In this document: positions 17 through 23,730 of the stretch, in pieces
Layout: each line of letters starts with the position of its first letter
Position numbering within the stretch: position 1 is the stretch's first letter
Assembly (NCBI GenBank): GCA_000004695.1
Contig: CM000154.2
Location: forward strand, 4,448,001-4,512,000
DNA length: 64,000 nucleotides
Direction of reading: 5' to 3'
Source: Dictyostelium discoideum
Lineage: Eukaryota
Program-made: the position numbers and the translations under genes
Notes under the pieces: generated by a model
The model's input: only the letters and a program-made list of their open reading frames with translations
Database searches by the model: none
What the model was told of the DNA's origin: nothing

Positions 17-140
17 TTTCTCTTTTTATAAATAATATAAATATAAAATAAAAATAAAAATAAAATAAATTTGAAATTTAAATTATTGTTTAATATAAAT
101 TTTTAAAAAGAAATAAATAAAAAAAAATTAAATTTTGGTT

Positions 141-205
141 GGTTTATTATAAACTGTTCATTTTTAGTTCATATTAAATTAAAATTAAAACTGATATATT
201 TAACA
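141..205. promoter_or_regulatory. Conserved proximal upstream motif of the PKS paralogs (copy belonging to the PKS gene that starts at 16)
   Basis: aaactgttcatttttagttcatattaaattaaaattaaaactgatatatttaacagcttgcttac lies 125-190 bp upstream of the ATG. The same motif lies at the same distance from the PKS-A and PKS-C ATGs (10979..11046, 34381..34448). It is absent upstream of PKS-B. Confidence 0.5.
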
Positions 206-853
206 GCTTGCTTACTAAAATTTGTAAGAGGGGTGGGGGTGTGGTAAAAGTTTTTCGAAATGAAGATTAAAAAAAAAAAAAGTAATATAAAAAAAAGGGT
301 TAGATTGTATTGATTAGATATTACCTGTAACAATATTTCTATGAATATCTTGTTATATTAATAACCCAATTTATTTTTAGTATACTTTACAATACAATAA
401 TTATCGTCTCATTAAATTAAAAATTAATAATTATAAAATATTCAATTTTGATAATTAATTACCATTTTATACTAAATTTTATTTAATTTTTACTACGTAT
501 GTACATTTTTATTTAATTAAATTAATTCAAAAATTTTAATTCTCCACTTGTCAGATATACACTAAGATTTAGATAATGATACTAAGGATAGAGAGAATAA
601 TTTTAAATTCAATTCTTCATACTAAATAAGATCAAATTAAAGAAATTATTGATAATTATTATATTAATAATAAAAATCAATCACTTTTTCTAAATATTTC
701 CCAACTCCAACCAGATTGAATTAGATGTAAAAGATAGGATTTTGAAGATATACATTATCTCATTTTTTAATTTTTTTTTTTTTTATTATTACTTTGATAA
801 ATATTTTTTTAGTTATTTTTTATTAATTTATTATTATTTAATATTATGTTTTT

Positions 854-1384
854 TTAGTTACTGTTACTATTAATATTATTTAAAATGATTGATTCATTAA
901 TTTCCCAATCTTGATGATTATATGAACCAATTGAAATTAATAATTCTTTTGTGCTATTTGACATTTTGAATAAACTATTGATTTTAAAAGTTGATATCAA
1001 TAAATTTTGATTATCATGAATGTGGAATGCTGAATATCTTTTTGATGATTTTCCATTTGATTTTGAAACTAATTTAATCCATTCTTGGTAATCGATTTCT
1101 TTGCAATTAAATTTATTTTCTAAAAACTCATAAATTGATTTCATTTCAATTGAATTACCATTTAAACTGTAAATTGAAATTGGTTTTGATTTATTTTGAT
1201 TCCAACTGTTTTCATTGAATATTAAATCAATTGTGGTTTTAGCTATAGTTGTAATTGGAGTTGTGAAAATTGGTTTATGAATATTTGGATAATAACCAAT
1301 CTCTTTTGAAACTTTTAATAAAAGTGATACGAAATCATTTGAATGACCTATACCTGTTATTGGATTTGAGAATATATCTGAATT

Positions 1385-1475
<91 letters not shown>

Positions 1476-4400
1476 GTAATAATAATATTAATAATAATAA
1501 TAATAAAATGTTTATTTTATTAGAATCTATAAATTTAATATTAAAGGTTAATCATATATTAAATATTACATACCAGGTGGTCTAATAATGATTGATGGTA
1601 TACCTCTTGATTCTGCTGCGTTTGTTAATAATTTCTCTGAAATAACTTTACATTGAATATATCCAATTGGTGTAGTATAAAAATTTGGTAATATATTTGT
1701 TTCTTCAAATGTTTCTCCATCTTTTAATTGATGATTAATAAATACTGCAATTGATGAAAAATGAACTATTAACTTTTGTGAGCTATTATTTGAAACTGAT
1801 AATTTTATAACTTGATTGATGCTGTCAACATTTACAGTTTTACTTTCTTCATAATTTGATTTTAAATTTAAATCTGCTGCTGAATTTATAATAATATCAC
1901 ATTCATTTGAAAGTTTTAAATAATCTTGTTCAGTCAAACCAAATTTATCTTTTGAGACATCACCAATCATTGGAATGATTTTAATTAATTGATCTTCACT
2001 TATTTGTTTATTGTTATTTTCACTGTTTTCAATATTACTATTTAATTTATCATTTGACATATTACCTGTACGATTGATTATTTTTGTTAATCTTTGATTT
2101 GGTGATTCTTTGTTCATATCTATTAATTGATGTTTTTTTAAATTATTAATAATTACATCGATTGGATTTGTTAATTTTGAATTATTTCTAATTAAACAAT
2201 AAATTTTTGAGATATTGTCCATTTTAATTAATTCTGTTAATAAATATGCACCCAAAAATCCTGTTGAACCTGTTAGGAATATTGATTTATTATTATTATT
2301 ATTTAATATATTTTTAATTGAATATGGTCTTGAAATGATTGATTCATTTAATTTAATTTCATTTTTAATAAATTCATCAAGTGATTGTTGTTCTTTTTTA
2401 ACTAAATTGTTATTATTATTGTTATTTTTGTTTTTGTTATTATTGATATGAGCCGATTTAATAATTTCAATTGATTGATTGATTTTATTATTTTGTAATT
2501 GTTGAATTGTGATAAGATTATGACCTATTTGATTATCGATAAAATTCTTTAATTGTACAATCACTAAGCTATCCATACCATATTGTGTGAGTTGAAGGTC
2601 TTCATTGATTTTAGATTCATCAATTGATAATAATTCACAAATCTTATTTAAAATTGTTGAACGAATAATTTCATTATTATCACCACCATTACCACTAGAA
2701 GAAGATTTGATTTGGCTTAATTTTTTAGAAATATTAATTTGATAATCGAATTTTGTTAGGAAATGATTTGTTAAAGTTGATGGTAAAACTTCAAAATTGA
2801 AATCTGATAAGCAATAGTTAGGATATTGATGTTGATTTTGAATGAATAAATCTAATGAACTAATAACGAGTTGAGGTGAGAATAGTTTTAAAATTGAACT
2901 CTTGAACATTGTTTCAATTGCATTATTACGTGATATGAAACCAGTTGATGATATCGCACCTAAATTAATGGCTAAAGATGGTAATCCAATTGAATGTCTA
3001 TACTTTGATAATGAATCGATAACACTACATGCACTAACATAACAACATTGTTGATCTGATCCAAATATTGAAACTATTGATGATGCCATTATAAATTGTT
3101 TGATATTCCATGAACGATTAATTGATTGATTGTGAAGATTGATTGCTCCAATTGTTTTAGCACCATGTGCATTATTTAAACGATTCATATCAACTTGTTG
3201 AACATCACCAATATCATTCATAAATGCAAAATGAATGATTGAATCAATATTTGTAATATTTTCATTTAATTCTAATTGATTTAATACTTGATTAACTTTA
3301 TTTGAATCTTCAATATCGATTTGATTGAAATGGAATTTAATATTATTATCTTTTTTAAATTTGCTTTGATTGATTAATAATTCTAATTCCCATTTTAATT
3401 TTGATTTTGAAAGTATTATAATATTTTCAATTGAATGGTTTGAATATTTAACCAAATATTTTAATATTTCTAAAACAATACCAGTTTGACCAGTGAGTAA
3501 AATATTTTTACCAATATTTAATTTTGAAATATCATATGAATGTTTCATTATGATTTGATTGTTATTACTTTGATAATTATTATAAACTCTATTAAATTCA
3601 TCTTGATTATGATTAACAATGATTTTACCAATATGTTTTCTTTGATTTATATATTCAATTGCATCTTTAAATTGATTATTTGAATATTCAATGATTGGTA
3701 CACTTAACTCTAATTCATTTGAATTGATCATTTTGATAATTTTCTTTAAATAGCTTTTGATTAATTTGCTTGGGAAATCTACGACTTCTACGTTATTGTA
3801 ACCCATATTAAACTTGTAATGATTGTTTGTCATATAATCATTTGGTGTGAGATGGGTGATACTTAAATCAACGATACATCCTGACATATTTAAACATTGG
3901 AAATTTGAATCCATATACTCTGATGATAATGTATTTAATATTATATCTACACCTTGTTGATTTTGTTCAACTACACCTAATTCTATTAATTTATTCTTAA
4001 TCTCGTAAACATAATCTTTATTACGAGATGAATAGATAGCAGTAATTAATGATCCATATTTCTTTGTTAAGTATTCTTCTTTATCTTTTGAACCAACTGT
4101 TAAAAATATATAACCTTGATGTTGTTTACTTTTTAATAAATCTAAAGATGATATACCGACACCACCTGCTGCTGAATGAATTAAAATTGATTCATTTGAT
4201 TTTAAATTACCAATACTATAGATACTATGTAATGATGTAATATAAATAGATGGTATTGATGCTGAAACTGAATGATTATAATTTAATGGTTTATAATAAA
4301 TAAAATTGAAATCTATAATAACATGTGAACTATTTGTTTTTGAACCAATACCACAAACTTGATCACCAACTTTAAATTTCTTTACATTACTACCTAATCT

Positions 4401-7400
4401 TGTAATTATACCACTAAAGTCATTACCAATGTTTGGATTATCAATACCAATACCATTTTCAATTTCATACTCTTTACCATATTTAATATCTAAATCTGTA
4501 CCAATCATGCCAATATACATTAAATAATCTTTATAATTTATACCATTTGCCTTAACTTCTATCTCTACTTCATTTGAATTTAATTCAGCTTTTTTACTAT
4601 ATAATTGATATTCTAAATTTGAATTTAATTGAATATATAAATTATCTTTATTGGTTTCAAATGATTCAGATTGGAATATACTTTTAATATTATTTGATCT
4701 TCTACAATATCTTTCATAGTATACTTTATTATTATTAATTGTAAATTCTTTTTGAATATTATTATTTGGATTGATTAAATAATTGATTAATGATAATTGT
4801 TGATTATTTTCAATTGAAACATTATCATAATTTAAAATATATAAATCTAATTGTGGGAATTCAACGAAATAACGAGCAGCACCAATAATTGATGATGATA
4901 AATAATTATCAGTGCTTGAATTTAATGATAATAATAAATGTTTGAAATTATTTGATAATTCTAATTTTAATATTAATTGATTAATTTGAATGTATTCAAA
5001 TGTGATTTCTTTGAAATTAAAAGTATTCATTGTTGATTCAATTGATTTTAAAAATATTATTAATGTTTTATTACAATCATCTTTATTTTGATTATTTGTG
5101 ATCCATGATTGAAATTCATTATAATTATTAATATTAATGATTTTATGTTTTAATTCTTGATTTGATCTTATTAAATCAAGAATACTACTGCTGCAACTAT
5201 TTCTATTTTTATCATTACTATTATTATTATTGCAAAATAAAATGATATTATTGAAAGAATTTAATTGATCTAATGATATTGATTGTTCTGAAATGATTTC
5301 ATTAATTGTTGGTTTTCTAGTTTGAATTAAAAATAGTAAATTATCATTACCAGACATTATTGTATCTCTATAATTACATTGATTTAAAAGGTTGATCCAT
5401 TTCTCTTGTTTCATACAACATCTATCAGGTCTTAATTCGATATCACTATCAGAGGATGGCCACCATTGTGAAAAACAACCGAAAATTGAATCATAATAAA
5501 ATGATTTGTATGGTGGTTCTATATATAAAAGTTGACCATTTGGTGTTAATATATTATGAATTTCATTTAATGTTGGTTTGAGTTTCTTAACGACATGCAT
5601 AACATTTGACATTACAATGAAATCATAATAGGATGCTTTAAGATCTTGATCTAATAATGGTTTCTCTAAATCTAATACACGATAGATAATATTTAAATTG
5701 TTATGATTTGTAAATGATGAAAACTTTTCTTTAATTTCAGCAAAAAATGATGCAGATACATCACTCCATGTAAATTCTATATTAATGATTGATGTTGTAC
5801 TATTATCGTTTAATAATTTACAAATCTTTTCTAAAATTAATAAACTAAGACTACCAGTACCGCCACCTGCTTCTAATATACGAAATACAATTGGTTCATT
5901 TAAAATTGGTTTTAGAGTTTCGACTATAATTTCACTTAATAAATTATTCAATGGTTGAACTACTCTTGAATTCTTATAAAAGTCATCTAAAAAACCACTT
6001 TCAAATAATGATTGTGGTGTATCTGTAATGGAATCATCATCTTTTAATGGGAATAGCTGTTTTGCCATTATTTTAGTTGTTCTAATATATAACTCTTCAT
6101 GTTTGGATTTAATATTACTGTGATTATTGTCATGGTTAAGAATATTACTATATCTCTTTAAATTTTCAAAAATGAATTTGAAAAGATTTTCATTTGCTAA
6201 ACTATTATAATATAATTGTTTGAATTGATTATATTCTAATGTTGTTAATGATTCTAAATTAATACTTGGAGATCTATTATTAATGTGTTTATAAAATAAT
6301 GACAATAATAATTCATTTGAAATGAATTGATTATCTTCTTCTTTGACACTAAATTCATCCACACTATATAAATGTTTGAATTGTTCAGGTTTGTTAATGA
6401 TAGAATCTTTTAATTGAAGATATGGTGTATAGATATCATTTGATGGTGGCTTACAAATTATTGTGCTATCAGGATTGGAGCCAAGTGAAACTAAAGCGCA
6501 AACTACATTTGAGATATCAACTAATAATGTACCATTTGGAAGTATGACTTTAACTGATACTGAATATGTTTGAGAATTGGTTCTTGGTTTAATATCTGAA
6601 AAAACATATAATTCTTTAATACTATCATCATCACTATTATTATTGTTGTTATTTTTATTTAATAATGGAATATTTGAAGAGTAAAATTTGAAAGCTTCAA
6701 TTTTATCAAGTACGACTGGTTGTGTAACTGCAACTAATGACCCATGTAAACAAGTATCTAAAATTGCTGCATTAAAGAATGTATTCATATTGTTATTGTT
6801 GATCAAATGATTATATTCTTTTTGATTATAAATTTCATTTAATGATACTATTGCTAATGAACAATTATTACCGATATAACATTGTTTTACACCTTGAAAT
6901 AAACCTTTGTATGTTAAATTTGTTTTAATTCTAATAGTTTCATAAAAATCTTGTTTTGACATGCTTGTAAAATTACATTTATCTTTTAATGATTGAATAT
7001 TAATTAATTTGTTACTGGTGATACTGTTATGTTTGGTTAAACTAAAATTACCAAGAGATGATAATATCCATTGATTTGTTTTTTGATCTTTGTAATGACT
7101 TTTAATATTGAATTCATTCTTTGATAATGGTGCAATTATAGTTTGTAAACATTGATTATTACCTTCTGTTAATACTAATGGTGATTTAAATTCTAATGAG
7201 CTAATTGTAATATCTTGATTTGGATAAATTGATAATAAATTATGAACATATCCCATTCCTGGATAATAGAATTTATCACTAACTTGATGACCTTTTAACC
7301 ATTGGAATGGTGATTTCTTGATATCGATAAATGTTTGATATGATAGATATGGTGAATCTGTATTATTACCAAGGTTATTAATGGATGGACCTTCACTTTT

Positions 7401-9226
7401 AATCTTTTCAAGTGATGAGTTTAGTTTAAAGTATTCTTTATCATCCCATTGGTAAAGTGGTAAATTATTTAATTTGGTTGTGTTACTAATGTTGTTGTTG
7501 TCATTGATTAATTGTGATTTGAAATTAATATCAAAATTATTATTGACATATAATAAAGAGATTGTCTTTAAGAATTCATTATAATCATTCTTCTTTTTAT
7601 TTAATGGTGAATAGATTGTAATGTTTTTACCATTATTAAAGTAACTTGATTGAGTTGATTTCATTTGATTTAAGTAATATTGTAATGTTGGATGTGGTGA
7701 AACTTCAATGAATGTAATTTCATTACCCATATCATTTGATTCGATATGTTTGTAAAGATTTGTAATTGTTTGTGTGAAATATACTGGTTGAATAATATTA
7801 TCAAATACATAATTTGCATTGAATGGTGAAGTTTGATGATTGAATAAATTGGTTGTAACTGTTGAAAATACTGCTATCGATGGTTGTTTCGATGAAATAT
7901 TTAATGAACATACTTCATCTTTAATCATTTGTTGACTTGATGTATGAAATGATGATAATGATCCTAACATTGAACAAAAGATATCATTTGATTTGAATTC
8001 ATTGGTAATTTCATTTAATAAGTCTTCATTACCTGCGATAACGATTGATGTTGGTGAATTGTAACATGCAATTTCTAATGATTTATATTTAGTTGTAGAT
8101 TGATATTTATTAATGAATTCATCTGAACTAATATTAACTGATAACATTCTACCTGTACCTGTGGTTCTATTTTGAGCTACTGATCTATGGTAAGTCAAGT
8201 AACATAATGTTTGAAAATCAATCATACCTGAACAATATGGCGATGATACTTCACCAAGAGAATGACCAATGATAATATCTGCTGAAACACCCCAATGTTT
8301 ATATAATTCATAGAGTGATACTTGAATGATAACATTTGCAGGTTGTGCTAAAATTGGTTGATGAATTGATATTAAATCTTTATCATCAATTGATCTTAAT
8401 TTATCTAAAACTGAATAACCATAATATTTGAATAACTCTTTATCGAATCTATTGACAGATTCTCTAAATATTGGTTCATTATCATATAATGATAATGCCA
8501 TTTTATTATATTGTGAACCTTGACCACATAATACCATTACTGTGATTGGTGATTTCTTTTTTTCAACTGTAATATTTGAAATTAAATTATCACTATTATT
8601 TAATTTGATTTGATTGCTTTCATCTTGAAATTCATTCCAATCACTTGCGATTATAACTGATTTTTGAATTAATGATGTTGATTTGAATTTAATTTGATTA
8701 TATACAAATTCTTTGAAACTTGTTGTTGTTGGCGATGAGTTTGAATTTGAATGTTTAATTATTGATGATTTATAATTATTTAATGATGTTGATGAATTGC
8801 TTGAGAGTGGTATTAAATATTTCTTTTTTTCATTTAAATTATTATCAATTTCCATTTTGTGATAACCATTACCATTACCATAACGACTAAGATTATTTTT
8901 AAATTCAGATAATATTAAACAAACATTTGAACCTAAATAAAAATTGATAATTTTAAATTGTTAATATAAGTTATTTGTATAAAAAGTATGTAATGATATA
9001 TTTACCAGTAACACCGAAATTATTAATTAACATGACAGTTGATTTATTTTCATTAAATTTAATTGGTTCAGTGACAACTTTTAATCCCCATTCTTTAAAA
9101 TTAATTAATGGATTTGGTTCTTTGAAATTAATATTTTGAAGAAATAGTTTATTTTTAAACATTAAACAACATTTAATTAATGATGCAACTCCTGAACATG
9201 CTGTTATTATTTATTATTATTTATTT

Positions 9227-9266
<40 letters not shown>

Positions 9267-10868
9267 AATAATATTAAATGTTAGTAATTAATGATTGACT
9301 ATGGTTATTATTGATCTAAGTCTAATTTTTAATTAATTAGCTTACCTTCAGTATGCCCAATATTTGATTTAATTGATCCAATTAAAACTTGTTTATGATT
9401 ATTATTTGTTGTTGCTGGTGCTTTATTGAAAACTCTTGATATACCTTCTAATTCTATTGGATCACCAGTTGGAGTACCAGTACCATGAGTTTCACAATAA
9501 TCAATATCAGATTCATTGATTTGACCATTGGTTGATTTGATTGCTAATTTGATATTTTCATACTGAGATGATTTTGATGGTGAATAAAAGTTTAATTTAT
9601 CAAAATTACCATCGATATTTGAACTTGATCCTTTGATTACACAATAGATATTATTTGAATCTTTGATTGCATCTTTTAATTTCTTTAATACAACGATACC
9701 AACACCTTCTGAACGAACATAACCATCAGCATCCGATGAAAATGTATGACATCTACCTGTTGGACTTAAAAGACCTAATTGTGTAAATGATTTTGAAATG
9801 TGTGGATCTATAAATAAATAAAAATTATTTGATAATTAATATATTTGTTTTAATTTTTTTTTTTTTTTTTTTTTATTTTTTTTTTTTTAATTTTTAAATT
9901 TATCACATACCTAATATAAAATTAACACCACCAACAATTGAAACATTTGATTTATTTGATTTAATTGAATTATATCCACAATTAATTGCATTTGATGAAC
10001 TTGAACAAGCTGTATCAATTGTTAAATTTTCACCTCTATTTTTTATAAAAAAATAATCACGATAATAACAATTAGTATTATAATTAAGTTTTTAGTGTGT
10101 GCCAAAAAAGATAAATCAAAAACATACCTAAAATCAAAGCAATAACCAATTCTATTTGCAACGGAATGAGTTGATGAACCAAAAATATTATTTTGAGTTT
10201 CAAATGATGATTTTTGAAGATTATTATAATCAATAGTACTACTACCAATAAATGTACTTGTATTGGTACCACGTAAACTAATTGGATCAATACCACTATC
10301 TTCTAATGCTTCCCATACACCTGTTTGTTGATTTTATTTTAAAAAACATTATTAATGGGTAAATGAAAAAAAAATGAAAAAAAAAATTTGGTGGTTATTT
10401 TTTATTTTTTTATTTTTTTTTTTTGGTTGGTTTCATTTTTATATTTTTTGGCGCCAAACCTGATGAAAATTTCCAAAACACTTATAATGAATACATACAT
10501 TTTAATAAAAATCTTTGTTGTGGGTCTATTGAACTGACATTATCATTGCTTGGATTAATTGCAAAGAAGATTGGATCAAATTGTTTCCATTCATCAAGTG
10601 GAAGTAAACCAGCAAACTTTGAAGCAATTTCACCATTTAAAAAATAATTATCAGACCATCTTTCAGAAGTTGTAACGATTCCATCCAATCCATTCAATAA
10701 TTCATTAAATAATTGATTTGGTTTGGAAATTGATTCTTTTAAACTACCACTTGGAAATCTTAAACCAATACCAATAACTGCAACATCACCACTACTACCA
10801 GCATCATCATAATCATTTATATCCCTTATTAATTGATTGTAAGTATTATTATCTGTATTTTGTACCAT
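854..10868 (-). CDS. Highly reducing type I polyketide synthase, copy A (KS-AT-DH-cMT-ER-KR-ACP-R), 7 exons, about 3075 aa
   Basis: Exons (minus strand) reconstructed from the ORF track plus GTATGT/GTAAGT...AG splice signals: 10868..10499, 10320..10128, 10035..9911, 9807..9346, 9200..9006, 8932..1574, 1377..854. Phases are consistent across all junctions.
Domain motifs:
- KS: N-terminal [13 protein letters not shown], active-site DTACSSS (exon 3), [12 protein letters not shown] and NIGHTEG (exon 4)
- AT: GQGSQ (about 8511-8525) and GHSLGE (about 8250-8267)
- DH: [15 protein letters not shown] (about 7289)
- C-MT: [13 protein letters not shown]-binding (about 5857-5884)
- ER: HSAAGGVG (about 4160-4185)
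- KR: LLTGQTGIV (about 3480-3510)
- ACP: GMDSL (about 2565-2578)
- terminal reductase: [14 protein letters not shown] (about 2249-2280)
The last intron (1378..1573) holds an (ATT)n microsatellite. Confidence 0.9.
1387..1506. repeat. (ATT/AAT)n microsatellite inside the last intron of PKS-A
   Basis: About 40 perfect trinucleotide units between the donor (GTATGT at 1573) and the acceptor (AG at 1378). The same repeat sits at the same intron position in PKS-C (24705..24800). Confidence 0.9.
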
Positions 10869-11100
10869 TTTCTTTTTTCTTAATAAATTAATATAACAAA
10901 TTAAAATAAAATATAATAAAATAAATGTGATATTTAAAAATTAAAATTAATAGAAAAAAAATAAAAATTAAATTTTATTTTAAACTGTTTAACAATTTTT
11001 AGTTCATATCAAATTAAAATTAAAACTGATATTTTTAACAGTTTTGCTTACAAATTCAAAGAAGATCTGGGTGTGCTGATATTTATTTGGGAAAAATGAT

Positions 11101-11137
<37 letters not shown>

Positions 11138-11650
11138 ACAGATTGCACAGGTATAGTTTAGATTTATTTATTTTTAATTTATATAAAATCAAAATCATAA
11201 TATAACCCCCACTCCCAACATTAATAATTAATTTTATTCTTATTTTAACAATTTTTTTTTTTTTTTTTCATAAAGTTTAATATTTTCGTTGGAATTAATG
11301 ATTGGTTTTAAAATTTATAAAAAAACAGTTTATTGCAACCACATTTGTACAATAATAATTTTATCTTTTTTTTAATTGGAAAATGGTTATCAAAATTCTA
11401 ATAATGAATTTAATTTTTTCTGTTGTTTTAAAACGTTTCAAGTGTGTTTATTTTTAGAAATAATAAAAAGTTTATTAATTAATTAAAAAAAAAAAAAATT
11501 TGGTGGTTGATTTTTTTTTTTTTTTAAAAAAAAGATGTTAAATTTTAACCCAATTCCCCCATTTAAAGATCAATTTATTTTAACAAACAAAACGTTTTTT
11601 TCAATAATTTTTTTTAATATTATTTTATATAAAAAATAGTCCCTACTCTT
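10869..11650. repeat. About 780-bp conserved PKS upstream block (near-identical copy at 34269..35045)
   Basis: The sequence from the ATG of PKS-A to about 11650 is almost base-for-base identical to the sequence upstream of PKS-C. It includes the about-65-bp motif aaactgtttaacaatttttagttcatatcaaattaaaattaaaactgatatttttaacagttttgcttac (10979..11046 and 34381..34448) and a distal about-300-bp module (11281..11595 and 34670..34997). The duplication unit therefore includes about 0.8 kb of 5' flank. Confidence 0.85.
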
Positions 11651-12221
11651 TAAAATAATAAATCATAAAAAATAAAATAAAATAAAATAAAAAAAAAATA
11701 TTTTTTTTTATTTTAGTGATATTACCTTTTTTTATTTGATTTTTATTTAAATTGCCTCGCCGAATTGTTTTCGATTAGTTTTTAAATTTTAAAAAAAATA
11801 TCAAATTCCACTGGAAAATTTATATTATTTTTATCTTTAATTATTTTTTTTGGTAATATAACCATATTTTAATTAAAAAAAAAAAAAAAATAAAAAAAAA
11901 TATTAGAATCAAACCTTTATACTTTTATTTATCAATTAATTTAAAAAAAAGGCACTTTAACAATTGGTGAATAGAATTGTACTATATTAGTTAATAGTTT
12001 TCATGGTGAATCACCAAAATTATTTTTTATATTTAATATCTTAGTTCACATTTTCATAAGATCAAATTTTAGAATTTTATTGTTTGCCATTCATTCTTTG
12101 AAAATGGTTTTTTATTTTAAAGAACAACCAGAAGGGGGTAAATTTTATTTGTGATTTTTATAAAAAAAAAAAAATTAATTCGATTTGATTTATGAACATG
12201 GTCTTCAAATGATTGATTCAT

Positions 12222-15200
12222 TTAATTATTTTTGTTTTTGTTATTACTATTATTTTTATTATTATTATTATTATTATTTTTGTTGTTGTTTTTAGCCGAT
12301 TTAATAATTTCAATTGATTGATTGATTTTATTATTTTGTAATTGTTGAATTGTGATAATATTATGACCTAATTGATTATCGATAAAATTCTTTAATTGTA
12401 CAATCACTAAACTATCCATACCATATTGCGAGAGTTGAAGGTCTTCATTGATTTTAGATTCATCAATCGATAATAATTCACTAATTTTATTTAAAATTGT
12501 TGAATGAATAATTTCATTATTAGCACCACTATTACCACTAGAGAAGGATTTAATTCGATTTGATTTTTTAACAATATTAATTTGATAATCAAATTTTGAA
12601 TGGTATTGATTTGTTAAAGTTGGTGTTAAAACTTCAAAATTGAAATCTGATAAACAGTAATTTGGATATTGATGTTGATTTTGAATGAATAAATCTAATG
12701 AACTAATAACGAGTTGAGGTGAGAATAAATTTACAATTGAACTCTTAAACATTGTTTCAATTGCATTATTACGCGATACAAAACCGGTTGATGATATCGC
12801 ACCTAAATTAATGGCTAAAGATGGTAATCCAATTGAATGTCTATACTTTGATAATGAATCGATAACACTACATGCACTAACATAACAACATTGTTGGTCT
12901 GATCCAAATATTGAGACTACTGATGATGCCATTATAAATTGTTTGATATTCCATGAACGATTAATTGATTGATTGTGAAGATTAATTGCTCCAATCGTTT
13001 TAGCACCATGTGCATTATTTAAACGATTCATATCGACTTGTTGAACATCACCAATGTCTATCATAAATGCAAAATGAATGATTGAATCAATATTTGTAAT
13101 ATTTTCATTTAATTCTAATTGGTTCAATACTTGATTAACTTTATTTGAATCTTCAATATCGATTTGATTGAAATGGAATTTAATATTATTATCTTTTTTA
13201 AATTTGCTTTGATTGATTAATAATTTTAATTCCCATTTTAATTTTGATTTTGAAAGTATTATTATATTTTCAATTGAATGGTTTGAATATTTGATTAAAT
13301 ATTTTAATATTTCTAAAACAATACCAGTTTGACCAGTGAGTAAAATATTTTTACCAATATTTAATTTTGAAATATCATATGAATGTTTCATTATGATTTG
13401 ATTGTTATTACTTTGATAATTATTATAAACTCTATTAAATTCATCTTGATTATGATTAACAATGATTTTACCAATATGTTTTCTTTGATTTATATATTCA
13501 ATTGCATCTTTAAATTGATTATTTGAATATTCAATGATTGGTACACTTAACTCTAATTTATTTGAATTAATCATTTTGATAATTTTCTTTAAATATCTTT
13601 TGATTAATTTACTTGGGAAATCTTCGATATCCACATTACCATAGTTCATATTAAATTTGTAATGATTGTTTGTCATATAATCATTTGGTGTGAGATGAGT
13701 GATACTTAAATCAACGATACGTCCTGATAAATTTAAACATTGGAAATTTGAATCCATATACTCTGATGATAATGTATTTAATATTAAATCTACACCTTGT
13801 TGATGTTGTTCGACTACACCTAATTCTATTAATTTATTCTTAATTTCATAAACATAATCTTTATTACGAGATGAATAGATAGCAGTAATTAATGATCCAT
13901 ATTTATTTATTAAGTATTCTTCTTTATCTTTTGAACCAACTGTTAAAAATATATAACCTTGATGTTGTTTACTTTTTAATAAATCTAAAGATGATATACC
14001 AATACCACCTGCTGCTGAATGAATTAAAATTGATTCATTTGATTTTAAATTACCAATACTATAGATACTATGTAATGTTGTAATATAAATAGATGGTATT
14101 GAGGCTGAAACTGAATGACTACAATTTAATGGTTTATAATAAATAGAATTGAAATCTATAATAACATGTGAACTATTTGTTTTTGAACCGAAACCACAAA
14201 CTTGATCACCAACTTTAAATTTCTTTACATTACTACCTAATCTTGTAATTATACCACTAAAGTCATTACCAATTTTTGGATTATCAATACCAATACCATA
14301 TTCAATTTCTTTACCATATTTAATATCTAAATCTGAACCAATCATACCAATATACATTAAATAGTCTTTATAATTTATACCAGTTGCTTTAACTTCTATC
14401 TCTACTTCATTTGAATTTAATTCATCTTTTTTACTATATAATTGATATTCTATATTTGAATTTAATTGAATATATAAATTATCTTTATTGGTTTCAAATG
14501 ATTCAGATTGGAATTTACTTTTTATATTATTTGATCTTCTACAGTATCTTTCATAGTATACTTTATTATTATTAATTGTAAATTCTTTTTGAATATTATT
14601 ATTTGGATTGATTAAATAATTGATTAATGATAATTGTTGATTATTTTCAATTGAAACATTATCATAATTTAAAATATATAAATCTAATTGTGGGAATTCA
14701 ACGAAATAACGAGCAGCACCAATAATTGATGATGATAAATAATTATCAGTGGTTGAATTTAATGATAATAATAAATGTTTGAAATTATTTGATAATTCTA
14801 ATTTTAATATTAATTGATTAATTTGAATGTATTCAAATGTGATTTCTTTGAAATTTGAAGTATTCATTGTTGATTCAATTGATTTTAAAAATATTATTAA
14901 TGATTTATTACAATTATCTTTATTTTGATTATTTGTAATCCATGATTGAAATTCATTATAATTATTAATATTAATGATTTTATGTTTTAATTCTTGATTT
15001 AATCTTATTAAATCAAGAATACTACTGCTGCAACTATTTCTATTTTTATTATTACTAAATAAAATGATATTATTGAAAGAATTTAATTGATCTAATGATA
15101 TTGATTGTTCTGAAATGATTTCATTAATTGTTGGTTTTCTAGTTTGAATTAAAAATAGTAAATTATCATTACCAGACATTATTGTATCTCTATAATTACA

Positions 15201-18200
15201 TTGACTCAAAAGGTTAACCCATTTCTCTTGTTTCATACAACATCTATCAGGTCTTAATTCGATATCACCATCAGAGGATGGCCACCATTGTGAAAAACAA
15301 CCGAATATCGAATCAAAATAAAATGATTTGTATGGTGGTTCTATATATAAAAGTTGACCATTTGGTGTTAATATATTATGAATTTCATTTAATGTTGGTT
15401 TGAGTTTCTTAACGACATGCATAACATTTGACATTACAACGAAATCATAATAGGATGCTTTAAGATCTTGATCTAATAATGGTTTCTCTAAATCTAATAC
15501 ACGATAGATAATATTTAAATTGTTATGATTTGTAAATGATGAGAACTTTTCTTTAATTTCAGCGAAAAATGATGCAGATACATCACTCCATGTAAATTCT
15601 ATATTAATGATTGATGTTGTACTATTATCATTTAATAATTTACAAATCTTTTCTAAAATTAATAAACTAAGACTACCAGTACCACCACCTGCTTCTAATA
15701 TACGAAATACAATTGGTTCATTTAAAATTGGTTTTAGAGTTTCAACTATAATTTCACTTAATAAATTATTCAATGGTTGAACTACTCTTGAATTCTTATA
15801 AAAGTCATCTAAAAAACCACTTTCAAATAATGATTGTGGTGTATCTGTAATAGAATCATCATCTTTTAATGGGAATAACTGTTTTGCCATTATTTTAGTT
15901 GTTCTAATAAATATCTTTTCAATTTTTGGCTTAATATTACTTTGATTATTGTCATGGTTAAGAATATTACTATATCTCTTTAAATTTTCAAAAATGAATT
16001 TGAAAAGATTTTCATTTACTAAACTATTATAATATAATTGTTTAAATTGATTATATTCTAATGTTGTTAATGATTCTAAATTAATACTTGGACATCTATT
16101 ATTAATGTGTTTATAAAATAATGACAATAATAATTCATTTGAAATAAATTGATTATCTTCTTCGTTGACACTAAATTCATCCACACTATATAAATGTTTG
16201 AATTGTTCAGGTTTATTAACTACTGAATCTTTTGATTGAAGATATGGTGTATAAATATCATTTAATGGTGGTTTACAAATTATAGTACTATCAGGATTGG
16301 AGCCAAGTGAAACTAAAGCGCAAACTACATTTGAGATATCAACTAATAATGTACCATTTGGAAGTATGATTTTGACTGATATTGAATATGTTTGATAATT
16401 GGTTCTAGGTTTAATATCTGAAAAAACATATAATTCTTTAATATCATCATTATTGTTGTTTTCATTTAATGATGGAATATTTGAAAAGTAATATTTGAAA
16501 CCTTCAATTCTATCAAGTACGACTGGTTGTGTAACTGCAACTAATGACCCATGTAAACAAGTATCTAAAATTGCTGTATTTAAGAATTTATTCATATTGC
16601 TATTGTTGATTAAATGATTATATTCTTTTTGATTATAAATTTCATTTAATGATACTATTGATAATGAACAATTATTACCGATATAACATTGTTTTACACC
16701 TTGAAATAAACCTTTGTATGTTAAATTTGTTTTAATTCGAATAGTTTCATAAAAATCTTGTTTTGATATGCTTGTAAAATTACATTTATCTTTTAATGAT
16801 TGAATATTAATTAATTTGTTACTGATGATACTGTTATGTTTGGTTAAATTAAAATTACCAAGAGATGATAATATCCATTGATTTGTTTTTTGATCTTTAT
16901 AATGACTTTTAATATTGAATTCATTCTTTGATAGTGGTGCAATTGTAGTTTGTAAACATTGATTATTACCTTCTGTTAATACCAATGGTGATTTAAATTC
17001 TAATGAGCTAATTGTAATATCTTGATTTGGATAAATTGATAATAAATTGTGAACATATCCCATTCCTGGATAATAGAATTTATCACTAACTTGATGACCT
17101 TTTAACCATTGGAATGGAGATTTCTTGATATCGATAAATGTTTGATATGATGGATATGGTGAATCTGTATTATTGCCAAGACTATGAATGGATGGACCTT
17201 CACTTTTAATCTTTTCATGAAATGAAGCAATTTTAAAGTATTCTTTATCATCCCATTGGTAAAGTGGTAAATTATTTAATTTGGTTGTGTTACTAATGTT
17301 GTTGTTGTCATTGATTAATTGTGATTTGAAATTAATATCAAAATTATTATTGACATATAATAAAGAGATTGTCTTTAAGAATTCATTATAATCATTCTTC
17401 TTTTTATTTAATGGTGAATAGATTGTAATGTTTTTACCATTATTAAAGTAACTTGATTGAGTTGATTTCATTTGATTTAAGTAATATTGTAATGTTGGAT
17501 GTGGTGAAACTTCAATGAATGTAATTTCATTACCCATATCATTTGATTCGATATGTTTATAAAGATTTGTTATTGTTTGTGTGAAACGAACTGGTTGGCG
17601 AATATTTTCAAATGCATAATCTGCATTGAATGGCAAGCTTTGATGATTGAATAAATTGGTTGTAACTGTTGAAAATACTGCTATCGATGGTTGTTTTGAT
17701 GAAATATTTAATGAACATACTTCATCTTTAATCATTTGTTGACTTGATGTATGAAATGATGATAATAATCCTAACATTGTACAAAAGATATTATTTGATT
17801 TGAATTCATTGGTAATTTCATTTAATAAGTCTTCTCTACCTGCGATAACGATTGATGTTGGTGAATTGTAACATGCAATTTCTAATGATTCATATTTAGT
17901 TGTAGATTGATAGTTATTAATGAATTCATCTGAACTAATATTAACTGATAACATTCTACCTGTACCTGTGGTTCTATTTTGAGCTACTGATCTATGGTAA
18001 ATCAAGTAGCATAATGTTTGAAAATCAATCATACCTGAACAATATGGTGATGATACTTCACCAAGAGAATGACCAATGATAATATCTGCTGAAACGCCCC
18101 AATGTTTATATAATTCATAGAGTGATACTTGAATGATAACATTTGCAGGTTGTGCTAAAATTGGTTGATGAATTGATATTAAATCTTTATCATCAATTGA

Positions 18201-20561
18201 TCTTAATTTATCTAAAACTGAATAACCATAATATTTGAATAACTCTTTATCGAATCTATTGACAGATTCTCTAAATATTGGTTCATTATCATATAATGAT
18301 AATGCCATTTTATTATATTGTGAACCTTGGCCACATAATACCATTACCGTGATTGGCGATTTCTTTTTTTCAACTGTAATATTTGAAATTAAATTATCAC
18401 TATTTTCTAATTTGATTTGATTATTTTCATCTTGAAATTCATTCCAATCACTTGCGATTATAACTGATTTTTGAATTAATGATGTTGATTTGAATTTAAT
18501 TTGATTGTGTACCAATTCTTTGAAACTTGTTGTGGTTGTTGGCGATGAGTTTGAATTTGAAAGTTTAATTATTGATGATTTATAATTATTTAATGATGTT
18601 GATGAATTGCTTGAGAGTGGTATTAAATATTTCTTTTTTTCATTAACTTTACTATCAATTTCAATTTTGTGATATTCATTTTCATAACGATTATGATGAT
18701 TTTTTTTTAATTCAGATAATATTAAACAAACATTTGAACCTAAATTAAAATTGATAGTTTTAAATTATTAATATAAGTTATTTGGAATCATTAATGATGT
18801 ATATTTACCAGTTATACCGAAATTATTAACTAACATGACAGTTGATTTATTTTCATTAAATTTAATTGGTTCAGTGACAACTTTTAATCCCCATTCTTTA
18901 AAATTAATTAATGGATTTGGTTCTTTGAAATTAATATTTTGAAGAAATAGTTTATTTTTAAACATTAAACAACATTTAATTAATGATGCAACTCCTGAAC
19001 ATGCTGTTATTATTTATTATTATGAAAAATATTTAATGTTAGTAATGATTTATAGCTCTAAAGTTAATTAATTAACTTACCTTCAAGATGTCCAATATTT
19101 GATTTAATTGATCCAACTAAAACTTGTTTATTATTATTTATTGTTGTTGATGGTATTTTAGCACTATTGAAAACTCTTGAAATACCTTCTAATTCTATTG
19201 GATCACCAGTTGGAGTACCAGTACCATGAGTTTCACAATAATCAATATCAGATTCATTGATTTGACCATTGGTTGATTTGATTGCTAATTTGATATTTTC
19301 ACACTGAGATGATTTTGATGGTGAATAAAAGTTTAATTTATCAAAGTTACCATCGATATTTGAACTTGATCCTTTGATTACACAATAGATATTATTTGAA
19401 TCTTTGATTGCATCTTTTAATTTCTTTAATACAACGATACCAACACCTTCTGAACGAACAAAACCATCAGCATCTGATGAAAATGTATGACATTTACCTG
19501 TTGGACTTAACATATCTAATTGGGTGAACGATTTTGAAATGTGTGGGTCTATAAATAAAATTTTTTTGATAATTAATATATAATTCTAAAATTTTCTTTT
19601 TTTTTTTTTCAAATTTATCACATACCTAATATAATATTAACACCACCAACGATTGAAACATTTGATCTATTTGTTTTAATTGAATTATATCCACAATTAA
19701 TTGCATTTGATGAACTTGAGCAAGCTGTATCAATTGTTAAATTTTCACCTCTATTTTTAAAATAACAATTAGTATTTAAGTTTTATTCTTCCAAAAAAGA
19801 TAAATCAAAACATACCTAAAATCAAAGCAATAACCAATTCTATTTGCAATTGAATGAGTTGATGAACCAAAAATATTATTTTGAGTTTCAGATGGTGATC
19901 TTTGAAGATTATAATAATCAATAGTACTATTACCAATAAATGTACTTGTATTGGTACCACGTAAACTAATTGGATCAATACCACTATCTTCTAATGCTTC
20001 CCATACACCTGCATGTTTGTTAATTTTATTTTAAAAAACATTATTAATGGGTAAATAAATAAATAAATAAAATAAATAAATAAATAAATAAATAAAAGAA
20101 AAAAAAAATTTTGGTGGGTTCATTTTTTTTATTATTTATTTTTGGCCAAACCTGATGAAAATTTCCAAAACACTTAATAAATACATACATTTTAATAATA
20201 ATCTTTGTTGTGGGTCTATTGAACTGACATTATCATAAGTTTGATTAATTGCAAAGAAGATTGGATCAAATTGTTTCCATTCATCAAGTGGAAGTAAACC
20301 AGCAAACTTTGAAACGATTTCACCATTTAAATAATAATTATCAGACCATCTTTCAGAAGTTGAAACGATTCCATCCAATCCATTCAATAATTCATTAAAT
20401 AATTGATTTGGTTTTGAAATTGATTCTTTTAAATTACCACTTGGAAATCTTAAACCAATACCAATCACTGCAACATCACCATCATCATTTCTATCAACAT
20501 CATCATCATCATTTCTATCCCTTATTAATTTATTATTATTATTATCTATATTTTGTGTCAT
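12222..20561 (-). CDS. Type I polyketide synthase, copy B (KS-AT-DH-cMT-ER-KR-ACP), lacks the terminal reductase domain; 6 exons, about 2623 aa
   Basis: Exons: 20561..20189, 20008..19816, 19750..19626, 19548..19081, 19003..18809, 18739..12222. Exon lengths (373/193/125/468/195) match copies A and C. The large exon is near-identical to A and C through the ACP, then stops (TAA at 12222-12224) inside the poly-Asn linker (...[25 protein letters not shown]). In A and C this linker connects ACP to the R domain. Sequence 3' of the stop (12221..11650) has no similarity to the R domain or last exon. Confidence 0.85.
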
Positions 20562-20574
20562 TTTCTCTTTTTAC

Positions 20575-20695
20575 AAATAAATAAAATAAAATAAAATAAA
20601 ATAAAATAAAATAAAATAAAATAAAATAGAATAAAATAGAATAAAATAGAATAAAATAGAATAAAATAGAATAAAATAAAATAAAATAAATAAAT
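20575..20695. repeat. (AATAAAATAG/AATAAAAT)n minisatellite immediately upstream of the PKS-B ATG
   Basis: Tandem ataaaataaa / ataaaataga units. Confidence 0.8.
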
Positions 20696-21574
20696 AAATT
20701 TGATATTTAAATAATAGAAATAAAAAAAAAAATTAAATAAAAAATTTGATGACGTTTATAGTTTTTGAAAAAATAAAAATAAAAAAAAGGTTAGATTGTT
20801 TGGATATTACTTTCAACACAAATAATTAATTTTAATTTTTGTTTTTTTTTTATTTGACCCAAAATTATGTTTTTTTTTATTTTTTTTTATTTTTTTTTTT
20901 TAAAATCTGGTGACTCTATATAAAAAACTATTTAATAGATTTAACTTAATGTATAGTTTGCTTTTGTGTTTGTAAATTTAGAAAAAAAAAAAAAAAATGA
21001 AATGTTGCAACTTTTTTATTTTTTTTGTTTCTATTTGATATCTCTTTTTTGTTATATGTTTACTTTACGAATTTATTACAGAAAAAATATAAATACATTC
21101 ATCTAAAATATAAATGCATTAATCTAAAATTTACATTTTTTCTGAAATCTAAAATTTTATACATTCATCTAAAATATGATTTTTTATTTCAGAAAGTGAT
21201 ACCTTTTGGTCACATATTTTACATGGCACAACTATTGGTGAAAGTTTACTCATTTCAGTCATTTTTAAATTTAAAGATAAAATATATATGTATTAGACAA
21301 AAAAAAAAAAATTAAAAAAATTTATATGAGACTCCTTATTATGTTTTATAAATTTTAATACGACAACAATTTCGACAAAAAAAACATTTTTTTTTCAAAA
21401 AAAAAACTTTTTTTTTCTGAAAATATTACACCCAGACACAAAAAATTAATTTTTCACCACTTTAATGCTGAAATTTTTACACCCTTAATTAGATTATAAC
21501 TTTTTTTTTTTTTTTAATTTATTGTTTTTATTTTTATTTTTGTTTTTATTTTTGTTTTTAAAATTAAATAATAA

Positions 21575-21890
21575 AAAAACAGTTTATTGAAATCAAGATG
21601 TTGAAGTATATTACAAAAGGTACAATGGTCATTTTTTTATTTTGGTTTTTTTTTTAAAATTAAAATAAAATAAAATTAAACAGTTTTCAAAAAATAAATT
21701 AAAAAAACTTTTTTTTAAACTGTTTTCAAGTGCGTTTTTAGAAATAAAAAAAGTTTTTTAATTATTAATAAAGAAAAAAAAAAAAAAAATTTGGTGGTTT
21801 TTTTTTTTTTAATAGAAGGTTAAAATTATTTTAACCCACTTCCCCAAAATTTAAATATATCAATTTGTTTTTAACAAAAACATTATTGGT
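21575..21890. promoter_or_regulatory. Third copy of the distal about-300-bp upstream module (contains TTTGGTGG), here in the divergent PKS-B / P450 intergenic region
   Basis: It shares acagtttattg, aaactgtttt, caagtg(c/t)gttt(a)tttttagaaataa(t)aaaaagttt, aaaaaatttggtggtt and ttaaa(a)ttattttaacccacttcccc with 11281..11595 and 34670..34997. It lies about 90-400 bp upstream of the P450 ATG. Confidence 0.5.
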
Positions 21891-21975
21891 TTTTTTATTT
21901 CATAATTTAAATAGTTTTTTTTTAAAAAAACTTTAATATAAAAGATTCTCAATTTATATATTTTATAATATTACA

Positions 21976-23730
21976 ATGAATACAATATTTACAATTATTT
22001 TAACAATTACAATATTAGTATTATCATTAATATTAAAAGTAAAATTTTAAAATATTATATATATTATTGACTATTAAAAATTAAACACTTACTTATACTT
22101 TTATTTTTTTAAATAGGATTTATTATTTGAAGGTAGGATTAAAAAAATTAATAAATTAATACCTGGTCCTTCTACAATTCCAGTTTTTGGTAATTTATTA
22201 CAAATTAACGCAAAAGATTTCCCAAAAAGTGTAAATGATTTCTATGAAAGATATGGCAAAGTTTTTAGATTAAGATTGGGTAGTGTTGAAATTGTTGTTC
22301 TAACTGGACCTGAAGTTATTGATGAATGTTTTAATAAAAAACATAGAGAAATTTTCAAAGAAAGATATATTAAATTCTCAAGATTTTTGGGTAAAGATTA
22401 TAATATTTTTTCTTCAAATGGTGATTATCATTATGTTCTAAGAGGAATTCTTACAAGTGAAATTACAACAAGAAAGTTAAATAATGGCAGATTAGAATCA
22501 AATAAATTTATTTTAGAAATGTTTAGTAATCTTTGTAAAGATAATAAAGAAACTCTTGTTAAAAATACACCAAATCAAATTAGGATTCTTGCTGTTAAAT
22601 TAATATTAAATTTCACATTAGGAATTGAAGAGAATGACGAAACCATTCTAATCATTGTAGAAAAGATTAAATGCATTTTTGAAGCTGCTGGATTATTAAT
22701 TTACTCTGATTATTTACCATTTTTATTTCCATTAGATATAAAATCAATGTCAAAGAATGATATTATTTCTAGTTACTTTTTTATAAAAGATTTTATAGGT
22801 ATAAAACTTGATGCTATTAAAATTAAATATGAAAAAGAAAATGAATTGAAAAATGAAACTACTGATGAAACATCTTCAAAACTAAACAATATTCCAATTA
22901 TTGAGAATTATTATAAAAATTATTTAGATGGTTCAATTCATTATGATTCAATCTTGTTTTCAATTTCTGATATTATTTTTGCAGCAGTTGATTCAACATC
23001 CAATGGGTTTAGTCTTTTAATTGGTCAATTAATTAATAAACCTGAAATTCAAGATAAAATATATGAAGAAATCATGAGAAATGATGAAAATAATAATACA
23101 AATAATATATCATTTGCTGATCATACAAAATATCCATATATTATTTCTGTAATGAATGGTAATTATCCATATATATATATATATATTGGTATTAATATGT
23201 GTTGATATATTTTTTCAAAAAATAAATTTTGTATTAATTTGAATAATAGAATCATATAGATATAATTCTTCAGTACCAATAACTGAACCGAATAAAACAA
23301 CAGAAGATGTTGAAGTAAATGGATATAAAATTGCAAAAGGTACAATGATAATTAAAAATCTTCGTGGTACACATTTATCAAAAGAGTTTTGGGGTGAAGA
23401 TGCTTTAGAATTTAAACCAGAAAGATTTAAAAATCAACCTTTAAATCAAAAAGGACTTTTTCATTTTGGTGCAGGTATGTTTTAAACTATTTTGAAATGG
23501 GAATCAAAATTTATCACTAATACAATAATAAATATTATTTTATTTAAACAGGAGCTAGAGCTTGTCCAGGAGGAAGATTTACAGAATCTTTTACTTTTAC
23601 TTTTTTGGTGATAATGTTAAAGAATTTTAAAATAGTCAATCCAACTGATATTCCAATTGATGTTGAAGGAGAAGTTGGTTTGGCAATGCAATGTAAACCT
23701 TTTGATGCCTTATTCATAAAACGTAATTAA
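21976..23730 (+). CDS. Cytochrome P450 monooxygenase, 4 exons
   Basis: Exons approx 21976..22038 (MNTIFTIILTITILVLSLILK membrane anchor), 22117..23158 (IPGPSTIPVFGNLLQI..., ORF 22276..23205), 23249..23474, 23552..23730. The spliced product carries the heme-binding signature FHFGAG/GARACPGGRF across the exon 3-4 junction and ends ...KPFDALFIKRN*. Transcribed divergently from PKS-B; the two ATGs are about 1.4 kb apart. Confidence 0.85.

Follow-up and report, generated by a model that had tools for sequence, protein, structure and literature searches.

The window analysed here, a stretch of 64,000 nucleotides of Dictyostelium discoideum DNA (GCA_000004695.1, contig CM000154.2, positions 4,448,001 to 4,512,000) with a G+C content of approximately 22%, harbors several type I polyketide synthase (PKS) genes, and similar sequence recurs upstream of some of them. 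One further copy lies between a PKS gene and a divergently transcribed cytochrome P450 gene (Table 1). This raises the question of what the repeats are: separately deployed regulatory modules, a shared bidirectional element that couples the P450 to the PKSs, a short interspersed repeat, or promoter DNA that was inherited when genes were duplicated together with their spacers. Zucko et al. are said to have described, in 2007, how PKS genes expanded in tandem within individual Dictyostelium lineages (cited in PMC3188802). We conclude that the apparent modules are very probably paralogous copies of one ancestral PKS/CYP514A head-to-head spacer, spread by nested tandem duplication, and thus inherited promoter DNA.

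Repeated sequence upstream of the PKS genes

The initial annotation, made from the sequence of the window, described a proximal motif of about 65 bp lying 110-190 bp upstream of three PKS start codons. The motif was indeed found upstream of PKS-0, PKS-A, and PKS-C, at measured distances of 111-189 bp from their minus-strand ATGs (Table 1). When compared with dinucleotide shuffles, the match between the PKS-A and PKS-C copies gave a z score of 22.7, and that between PKS-A and the region upstream of PKS-0 (U0) a z score of 13.9. The recurrence of a longer distal module could likewise be reproduced, with a z score of 51 for 11281-11595 versus 34670-34997 (dinucleotide shuffles). Its third copy, at 21575-21890, is approximately 74-75% identical to those of PKS-A and PKS-C (z score of 9.8), and BLAST aligned 11423-11587 with 21710-21878, that is, the distal module of PKS-A with the P450-side copy. 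Scores of 81-88 were obtained for this copy; the maximum among 120 real AT-rich windows taken from the other spacers of the window was 41. Its proposed distance of some 100-400 bp from the P450 start was also borne out, at 86-401 bp with the coordinates of the initial annotation and at 43-393 bp upstream of the CYP514A4 ATG with those of our profile. For PKS-A, the corresponding module occupies the stretch from 411 to 776 bp upstream of the start codon.

Table 1. Coordinates of genes, spacers, and repeated elements in the window
Feature	Position	Strand	Basis or remark
PKS-0 (type I PKS)	ATG 16	minus	gene body left of window
Proximal core, PKS-0 copy	141-205	minus	old paralogue, ~74% to PKS-A copy
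Strong G-box GGGGTGGGGGTGTGG	230-244		adjoins PKS-0 core
Super-unit 1 (PKS-A, UA, PKS-B, spacer, CYP514A4)	818-24133		colinear diagonals versus super-unit 2
PKS-A (type I PKS)	ATG 10868	minus	
UA, full PKS-A upstream block	10869-11644	minus	proximal core, G/C boxes, type-A distal module
Proximal core, PKS-A copy	10979-11046	minus	profile and conservation island
Distal module type A, PKS-A copy	11279-11644		P450-less; nhmmer 303.6 bits
PKS-B (type I PKS)	12222-20561	minus	divergent partner of CYP514A4
PKS-B/CYP514A4 head-to-head spacer, 1414 bp	20562-21975		PKS-B minus, CYP514A4 plus
Spacer part, microsatellite	~20575-20700		
Spacer part, remnant 'ggttagattg...'	20789-20816		
Spacer part, 367-bp extra segment	21096-21462		
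Distal module type B	21583-21933		P450-side third of PKS-B/CYP514A4 spacer; nhmmer 208 bits
CYP514A4, intact cytochrome P450	21976-23730	plus	tblastn
CYP514A4 exons (n = 4)	21976-22038, 22117-23157, 23249-~23476, ~23548-23730	plus	
Super-unit 2, in-window part (PKS-C, UC, fragment F, retroelement start)	24134-38666		
PKS-C (type I PKS)	ATG 34268	minus	
UC, PKS-C upstream block	34269-35048	minus	recent twin of UA
Proximal core, PKS-C copy	34381-34448	minus	
Distal module type A, PKS-C copy	34672-35048		nhmmer 310.8 bits
PKS fragment F	35048-37518		
PKS-E	ATG ~59504	plus	

The repeats therefore exist as described. The proposal of a modular architecture built from separately deployed elements did not survive: the proximal and distal modules of PKS-A and PKS-C lie within one continuous block, and a nested tandem duplication of gene plus spacer, with later deletions, explains the pattern of presence and absence. 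A single HSP of 95% identity and approximately 1.18 kb joins 10467-11644 to 33866-35048, starting inside PKS exon 1 and spanning both modules.

The P450 protein encoded from position 21976 matches CYP514A4, and CYP514A1 falls in the same 90% protein cluster. PKS-B is without the C-terminal reductase domain and without the proximal core, and it looks partly degenerate. Upstream of PKS-0 only the proximal part is present, the distal module being absent from its flank, and PKS-E has neither module, as is also the case for the PKS that follows CYP514A1. Since PKS-E and the latter PKS are without both modules and PKS-B is without the core, the elements are not required by every member of the family.

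Sequence of a second assembly was available for parts of the locus. A contig of GCA_054883475.1 (CM142511.1; L012) differs from window positions 11976-33718 by 1 mismatch, positions 1-3602 of a further sequence (L011) equal 35065-38666, and positions 1-2596 of L009 equal 61405-64000. Accordingly, neither L012 nor the initial 3.6 kb of L011 was counted as an independent copy, both being the locus of the window itself as represented in a different assembly. To the right of window position 38666, the window and GCA_054883475.1 differ in structure.

Duplication history of the locus

The upstream blocks UA and UC are 98.5-99% identical per 200 bp without gaps. Introns and the 3' flank of PKS-A and PKS-C are 97-98% identical, and coding stretches range from approximately 90% to 99.5%. 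Because the upstream identity is about that of introns and the 3' flank, the PKS-A and PKS-C copies carry no signal of selection. Homology between the two genes covers 818-10390 and 24134-33666 in addition to the upstream block, and the whole 23.3-kb super-unit is colinear on diagonals 0, +83, -5574, -6249, +127, and -217. These offsets are explained by two events, a 5.6-6.2-kb deletion inside fragment F and the insertion of an approximately 6.4-kb retroelement at codon 27 of exon 1 of the same fragment. Super-unit 2 was extended with L011, which belongs to an assembly that continues the window; in GCA_054883475.1, the unit continues into a copy of the spacer and CYP514A1.

The spacer beside CYP514A1 is an approximately 95% copy of the entire PKS-B/CYP514A4 spacer (95.1%, ungapped), including 80 bp from a PKS exon 1 that is dead, its ATG having been destroyed. 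From the distal module through most of the P450 gene, the identity between CYP514A4 and its CYP514A1 paralogue is 94.5%. As the entire spacer was copied at CYP514A1, the right edge of the distal modules of PKS-A and PKS-C (11644 and 35048) is a deletion breakpoint and not the boundary of an element; in UC, the breakpoint adjoins the minus-strand PKS fragment F. No convincing similarity to a P450 residue was found past 11644 in the PKS-A copy.

Two types of distal module can be distinguished, type A in the P450-less positions upstream of PKS-A and PKS-C and type B beside the P450. They are approximately 74% identical to one another, and both are already present in L001, the syntenic locus of a divergent strain; judging from these sequences, the split between the types is older than the duplication that separated PKS-A from PKS-C. 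The bodies of PKS-A and PKS-B are 92.6% identical with introns included, and this homology ends approximately 90 bp upstream of the ATG, a pattern that points to likely gene conversion of the gene bodies with the spacers spared.

The comparisons show the following history. An old tandem duplication of a PKS together with its spacer gave rise to the two spacer lineages, type B and type A. A recent tandem duplication of 23.3 kb then copied PKS-A, UA, PKS-B, the spacer, and CYP514A4 into PKS-C, UC, PKS-F, a spacer, and CYP514A1, and the near-identical copies at PKS-A and PKS-C are its product. Later deletions account for the absence of a proximal core upstream of PKS-B. The core is lost in the AX4-type PKS-B spacer but kept in the orthologues L001, L002, and L003, and an (AATAAAATR)n microsatellite fills part of the shortened stretch. 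At nucleotide resolution, the locus displays birth-and-death dynamics: genes have been truncated, stretches deleted, a retroelement inserted, and gene bodies likely homogenised by gene conversion.

A minus-strand PKS stands head to head with a plus-strand P450 at the orthologous position in D. firmibasis, D. citrinum, two D. cf. discoideum, and a second strain of D. discoideum, and this arrangement is seen in L001-L005 and L011. D. citrinum harbors three tandem P450/PKS units in which the PKSs have decayed. In L001, both modules lie in the P450 spacer, and both are also present upstream of an A-like PKS. We searched 327 kb from six genomes with profiles of both modules, and all matches lay solely 5' of CYP514A genes or of PKS genes that belong to this subfamily. 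Hits for the core occurred only 94-275 bp upstream of PKS ATGs and in constant orientation, and hits for the distal module occurred only on the far side of PKS spacers. Wherever a CYP514A gene is present and no insertion intervenes, 43-158 bp separate its ATG from the end of the distal module; in L003, an insertion has widened this distance to 773 bp. Core and distal blocks can also be recognised at a related PKS that is located on another contig (L010). In the profile search, no module copies were found in the unrelated loci L007 and L008 or in the other AT-rich spacers of the window.

Between the window and L001, the modules are 82-92% identical (90% for the type-B module and its ortholog), introns 76-97%, and exons 94-99%, so that no constraint on the modules is seen in this comparison. 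Identity between these orthologues was accordingly rejected as proof of constraint, the modules being at about intron level at that distance.

Candidate elements and alternative readings

In gene orientation, the proximal core of PKS-A has the sequence GTAAGCAAAACTGTTAAAAATATCAGTTTTAATTTTAATTTGATATGAACTAAAAATTGTTAAACAGTTT; a TATA-like A/T box comes next, and then an oligo-T run. At every PKS that has the core, such a box and run come directly downstream of it. A TATA-like A/T box with an oligo-T run is the classic layout of a Dictyostelium core promoter. Across seven old copies, the core forms an island with a mean pairwise identity of 0.58-0.73, compared with 0.25-0.5 in the flanks on both sides. 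An alignment-free test gave a similar picture: 12-mers of the core were common to 4.47 of the 6 other copies, with an expectation of 1.47 and a maximum of 1.89 in shuffles, and 12-mers of the flanks were shared by 3.87 versus an expected 3.18, which is accounted for by low complexity. The island could partly reflect mutational bias, as information-rich sequence slips less than the A/T runs that surround it. The core contains GTAAAACTGTTAAAAATATCAGTTT, which is kept even in D. citrinum, and shows the dyad symmetry AAACTGTTAA...TTAAACAGTTT. On this basis, the core would be a promoter-proximal control element of the PKS genes, bound by a sequence-specific factor that is probably a dimer. Myb-type (YAACKG) and GATA readings of the core were set aside and are no more than leads, because on visual inspection the conserved bases do not match the canonical sites in every copy. 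A literature search that combined the words AACTGTT/AACAGTT with Dictyostelium gave primer-type matches only. An argument for orientation-independence from a flipped core in D. citrinum was also rejected, since the PKS remnant concerned is without exon 1 and lies in a rearranged region.

Three blocks of the distal module, GTTTTCAAGTG, AAATTTGGTGGTTTTTT, and TTTTAACCCACTTCCCC, are kept across types and species, and AAAAACAGTTTATT is kept even in D. citrinum. The type-B module contains three copies of AAACNGTTT together with TTTGGTGGTT and TTTTAACCCACTTCCCC. A further word, TATAAAAG, occurs at 21937-21944 in the PKS-B/CYP514A4 spacer. Among the words of the modules, a palindrome of 9 bp, AAACNGTTT, stands out most. 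All seven of its sites in the window lie inside modules, and 22 of the 33 sites in 236 kb fall within the 13.4 kb of these spacers. Its density is 1.64 per kb in the spacers versus 0.06 per kb in other AT-rich DNA, approximately a 27-fold difference in counts that are inflated by the homology between copies. Each P450-adjacent module has three to five sites, at positions that are partly non-homologous; the corresponding spacers have none in D. firmibasis and one in D. citrinum. The distal module would represent the P450-side half of the spacer, a putative promoter or upstream activating region of the P450 with a homotypic cluster of AAACNGTTT, and in the P450-less positions at PKS-A and PKS-C it would be a carried-along relic that possibly, but not necessarily, still influences the PKS.

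G-boxes were considered as paired sites of the GBF heptamer consensus, (T/G)G(T/G)G(T/G)G(T/G) (PMC2257962). We found 2 sites of this type in UA, 2 in UC (each approximately 780 bp), and 1 in UB, with a background of 0.9 per kb; a strong cluster is present in U0, and one box has a conserved position beside the core. As the enrichment is weak, GBF/G-boxes were rejected as the main shared element. There is a small chance that the core and the AAACNGTTT clusters together constitute a cluster-specific cis-code, in which a dedicated, probably dimeric factor would activate the PKS subfamily and its CYP514A partners and the type-A modules would be working PKS enhancers. If true, this would be an amoebozoan counterpart to the pathway-specific regulators of fungal secondary-metabolite clusters.

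A different relation between the two genes had been suggested by the initial annotation, which raised the possibility of a shared bidirectional element. In its full form, the distal module drives both PKS and P450 and is kept at PKS-A and PKS-C because the PKS needs it, and this we find doubtful. In its favor, species and paralogues alike have kept the head-to-head arrangement, the P450-less type-A modules predate the ACTFIR strain split (87-88% identity), and co-expressed head-to-head pairs of terpene synthase (TPS) and P450 (CYP) genes are found in this organism (PMC6524965). However, the distance of the module to the P450 ATG is tight (43-158 bp), whereas that to the PKS ATG varies from 333 to 1372 bp. 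The spacer tolerates both a 367-bp indel and a PKS partner disrupted by a retroelement while the P450 side remains intact, and the persistence of the type-A modules is no better than intron level. What stands of the initial reading is that these sequences are PKS 5' regulatory DNA, that the proximal motif is a conserved promoter-proximal element, and that the P450-adjacent copy lies in a head-to-head spacer whose arrangement is conserved; what does not is an architecture of separately deployed modules. Because the PKS/P450 spacer has been kept in paralogues (CYP514A4 and CYP514A1) and in related species, a shared or a P450-side promoter role is plausible, and coupling of the two genes through the P450-adjacent copy is, as far as sequence can tell, likewise plausible. 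At the other extreme, the copies might be shared only through recent duplication and gene conversion, with no regulatory function in any block. The identity of the PKS-A and PKS-C copies equals that of neutral DNA from the same duplication, the modules are about as similar between orthologues as introns are, and PKS-B, PKS-E, and the PKS after CYP514A1 do without one or both modules. Complete neutrality is nevertheless unlikely, since the core is recognisable in seven copies whose flanks have drifted to background, by the alignment-free test as well, blocks D1, D3, and D4 survive along with the core in D. citrinum and at an unlinked PKS locus, and AAACNGTTT is found repeatedly at positions that are not homologous. 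For the distal type-A relics by themselves, pure neutrality is possible.

The remaining alternatives concern the nature of the repeated DNA. The dyad symmetry of the core and the occurrence of modules in several places would be compatible with a mobile element, MITE- or SINE-like, that landed near these genes by chance, the short interspersed repeat that had been offered as the other explanation. However, the modules have no terminal inverted repeats or other terminal repeats (A/T-run complementarity only) and no visible target-site duplications, colinearity with the homology of the neighbouring genes holds for every copy, searches for tRNA genes and Rfam families gave no match, and no copies occur in approximately 65 kb of other AT-rich spacer DNA, in L007 or L008, or anywhere beyond the 5' flanks of PKS and CYP514A genes in the 327 kb from six genomes. 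Likewise, no further copies of the 20830-21500 segment or of the other spacer remainders were found in the sequence searched. A mobile origin is hence so improbable that it can practically be set aside. Transcription of the core, as a structured RNA or hairpin or as the start of a 5'-UTR intron, is somewhat less remote and still very unlikely. The 5' edge of the core has a splice-donor-like GTAAGC, conserved in 7 of 8 copies, approximately 165 nt before an AG beside the ATG, and the span to this AG has the length and AT content of a typical Dictyostelium intron. A mini-uORF, ATGAACTAA, is also found within the core. Against a transcribed core, no stable fold was found (z scores of +0.1 to -1.5, with 0 compensatory pairs), the C-boxes do not, by eye, fit the DUSE consensus of the class I RNA type, no Rfam hit was obtained at the gathering threshold or at an E value of ≤1, and 65 conserved bases far exceed what a splice donor needs. 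Descent of the modules from one ancestral PKS/CYP514A spacer, by nested tandem duplication, is the reading that we favor.

Relation to known gene pairs and PKS expansions

The apparent modular promoter architecture is, on this reading, the footprint of nested tandem duplication, a caution for studies that infer regulation from upstream repeats where a gene family has expanded recently. The analysis also resolves the chromosomal PKS cluster of D. discoideum around CYP514A1 and CYP514A4 into PKS/P450 head-to-head units that are conserved in relatives. The 65-bp core and AAACNGTTT provide two small targets for promoter dissection. In the literature searched, a single preprint mentions CYP514A, and we found no description of the PKS-CYP514A pairing, of the core and AAACNGTTT as cis-elements, or of a joint duplication of defined upstream elements and P450 partners with PKS genes. 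Possibly new are a species-conserved PKS-CYP514A pairing and two candidate cis-elements, AAACNGTTT and the core of 65 bp. The case overall is ordinary in principle, one of paralogous promoter DNA with one candidate new cis-element.

The closest precedent for the shared spacers is the sigN family of D. discoideum, in which inverted gene pairs have been duplicated and the spacers that they share are conserved (PMC2257962). In both systems, tandem amplification has taken place with the intergenic promoter inside the duplication unit, which is why paralogues share conserved spacer blocks, and in both, G/C-rich putative factor sites lie between divergent genes. The divergent genes of the sigN family are paralogues of each other, whereas those described here encode unrelated enzymes, a PKS and a P450. 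Furthermore, the sigN blocks are GBF-type G-boxes; in the present spacers, GBF heptamers are only weakly enriched and AAACNGTTT is the most distinctive word.

For the gene pair itself, the nearest parallel is provided by DdTPS8-CYP521A1 and other TPS-CYP pairs of Dictyostelium, which are arranged head to head and for which, in the case of TPS8/CYP521A1, co-expression and consecutive catalysis have been shown (PMC6524965). There as here, a core enzyme of secondary metabolism stands head to head with a P450 across a spacer of approximately 0.6-1.4 kb, and some of the pairs adjoin tandem or partial duplicates. The present locus differs in that it combines a type I PKS, as the core enzyme, with a P450 of family CYP514A, in that the pairing is known from sequence, and in that the spacer measures 1.4 kb versus 580-685 bp in the D. 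discoideum TPS-CYP pairs (PMC6524965). By analogy, the head-to-head units conserved in relatives suggest a possible biosynthetic partnership of PKS and P450 like that of the TPS-CYP pairs.

The PKS genes of Dictyostelium have undergone lineage-specific expansion and include closely related paralogues (PMC3188802). The locus agrees with the birth-and-death evolution of these expansions, which appears here in the form of fragments, truncations, and a retroelement insertion. Studies of PKS expansion have treated the coding sequences, whereas at this locus the upstream elements and the P450 partners were duplicated together with the PKS genes.

The interrupted partner of CYP514A1 and the right edge of the cluster

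Our results show that the PKS fragment F, from which a deletion has removed 5.6-6.2 kb in comparison with PKS-B, is split at codon 27 in exon 1 by a retroelement of ~6.4 kb with an RVT_1 ORF. Beyond the insertion, assembly GCA_054883475.1 (locus L011) continues with the first 80 bp of F exon 1, in which the ATG is destroyed, and then with a spacer and CYP514A1, the P450 paralogue of the next tandem unit. Because the start of exon 1, the spacer and CYP514A1 follow one another across the insertion, F is, as judged from this arrangement, the former divergent partner of CYP514A1.

The window and GCA_054883475.1 agree as far as position 38666 and diverge inside the retroelement (window 38667-64000 compared with L011 and a further locus, L009). 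To the right of 38666, the window runs on into ordinary genes and then into the plus-strand gene PKS-E. Bases 61405-64000 of this gene have a 100% match in GCA_054883475.1, but there the relative orientation is inverted and the location is not colinear. The disagreement is due either to a structural variant or to differing assembly of the repeat.

An O-methyltransferase-like gene is located just outside the edge of the PKS cluster. Its predicted product could be a further tailoring enzyme; its upstream region contains 0 AAACNGTTT sites and 0 modules.

Coordinates of features in the window and in the compared loci
Feature	Position	Strand	Remark
PKS-B	window 12222-20561	minus	stop at 12222, directly after the ACP region
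(AATAAAAT[A/G])n microsatellite	window ~20575-20700		directly upstream of the PKS-B ATG
367-bp extra segment	window 21096-21462		PKS-B/CYP514A4 spacer
PKS fragment F and retroelement	window 35048-38666; L011 2454-8859
O-methyltransferase-like gene	window 39859-41174	plus	match to Pfam dimerisation domain
L010 upstream blocks	L010 9518-9810		D. discoideum strain ACTFIR, different contig

PKS-B, its paralogues and its spacer

The C-terminal reductase/NAD-binding domain (~800 bp) that is present in PKS-A and PKS-C is missing from PKS-B, whose annotated length is 2623 aa versus ~3000-3100 aa in its neighbors. As the PKS-B promoter also lacks the proximal core, the 65-bp element found upstream of PKS start codons, PKS-B may be decaying.

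In a comparison of window 2319-10960 with 12193-20656, the gene bodies of PKS-A and PKS-B, introns included, are 92.6% identical. This homology ends ~90 bp ahead of the ATG; farther out, the spacers are only ~74% alike or unalignable. Together with the mosaic identity of PKS-A and PKS-C, which varies between 90 and 99.5% along their length, this pattern suggests gene conversion among the PKS paralogues.

In the spacer between PKS-B and the intact P450 gene CYP514A4, the microsatellite lies within a shortened stretch in which the proximal core of other copies is lost; a shorter form of the repeat occurs in the CYP514A1 spacer. The latter lacks the 367-bp segment and is elsewhere 95% identical. 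This segment could not be aligned to the syntenic locus of a divergent strain (L001), and no further convincing copy was found in the window or in loci L001-L008.

The proximal core in its copies and at related loci

A splice-donor-like GTAAGC stands at the start of the proximal core (10979-11046 in the PKS-A copy) in seven of eight copies, and a putative two-codon uORF, ATGAACTAA, is read within the core in six of the eight. In D. citrinum (L004, 1-12000), three P450 genes lie in tandem, and after each comes a PKS or PKS remnants with extensive deletions. Proximal-core sequence lies flipped beside the third P450, adjoining a PKS remnant that has lost exon 1. Outside the main cluster, L010 harbors a truncated related PKS of 1175 aa, part of whose exon 1 is 94% identical at the nucleotide level; upstream of it lie the proximal core and blocks D3, D4 and D5 of the distal module, the P450-side part of the PKS/CYP514A spacer, in non-colinear order.
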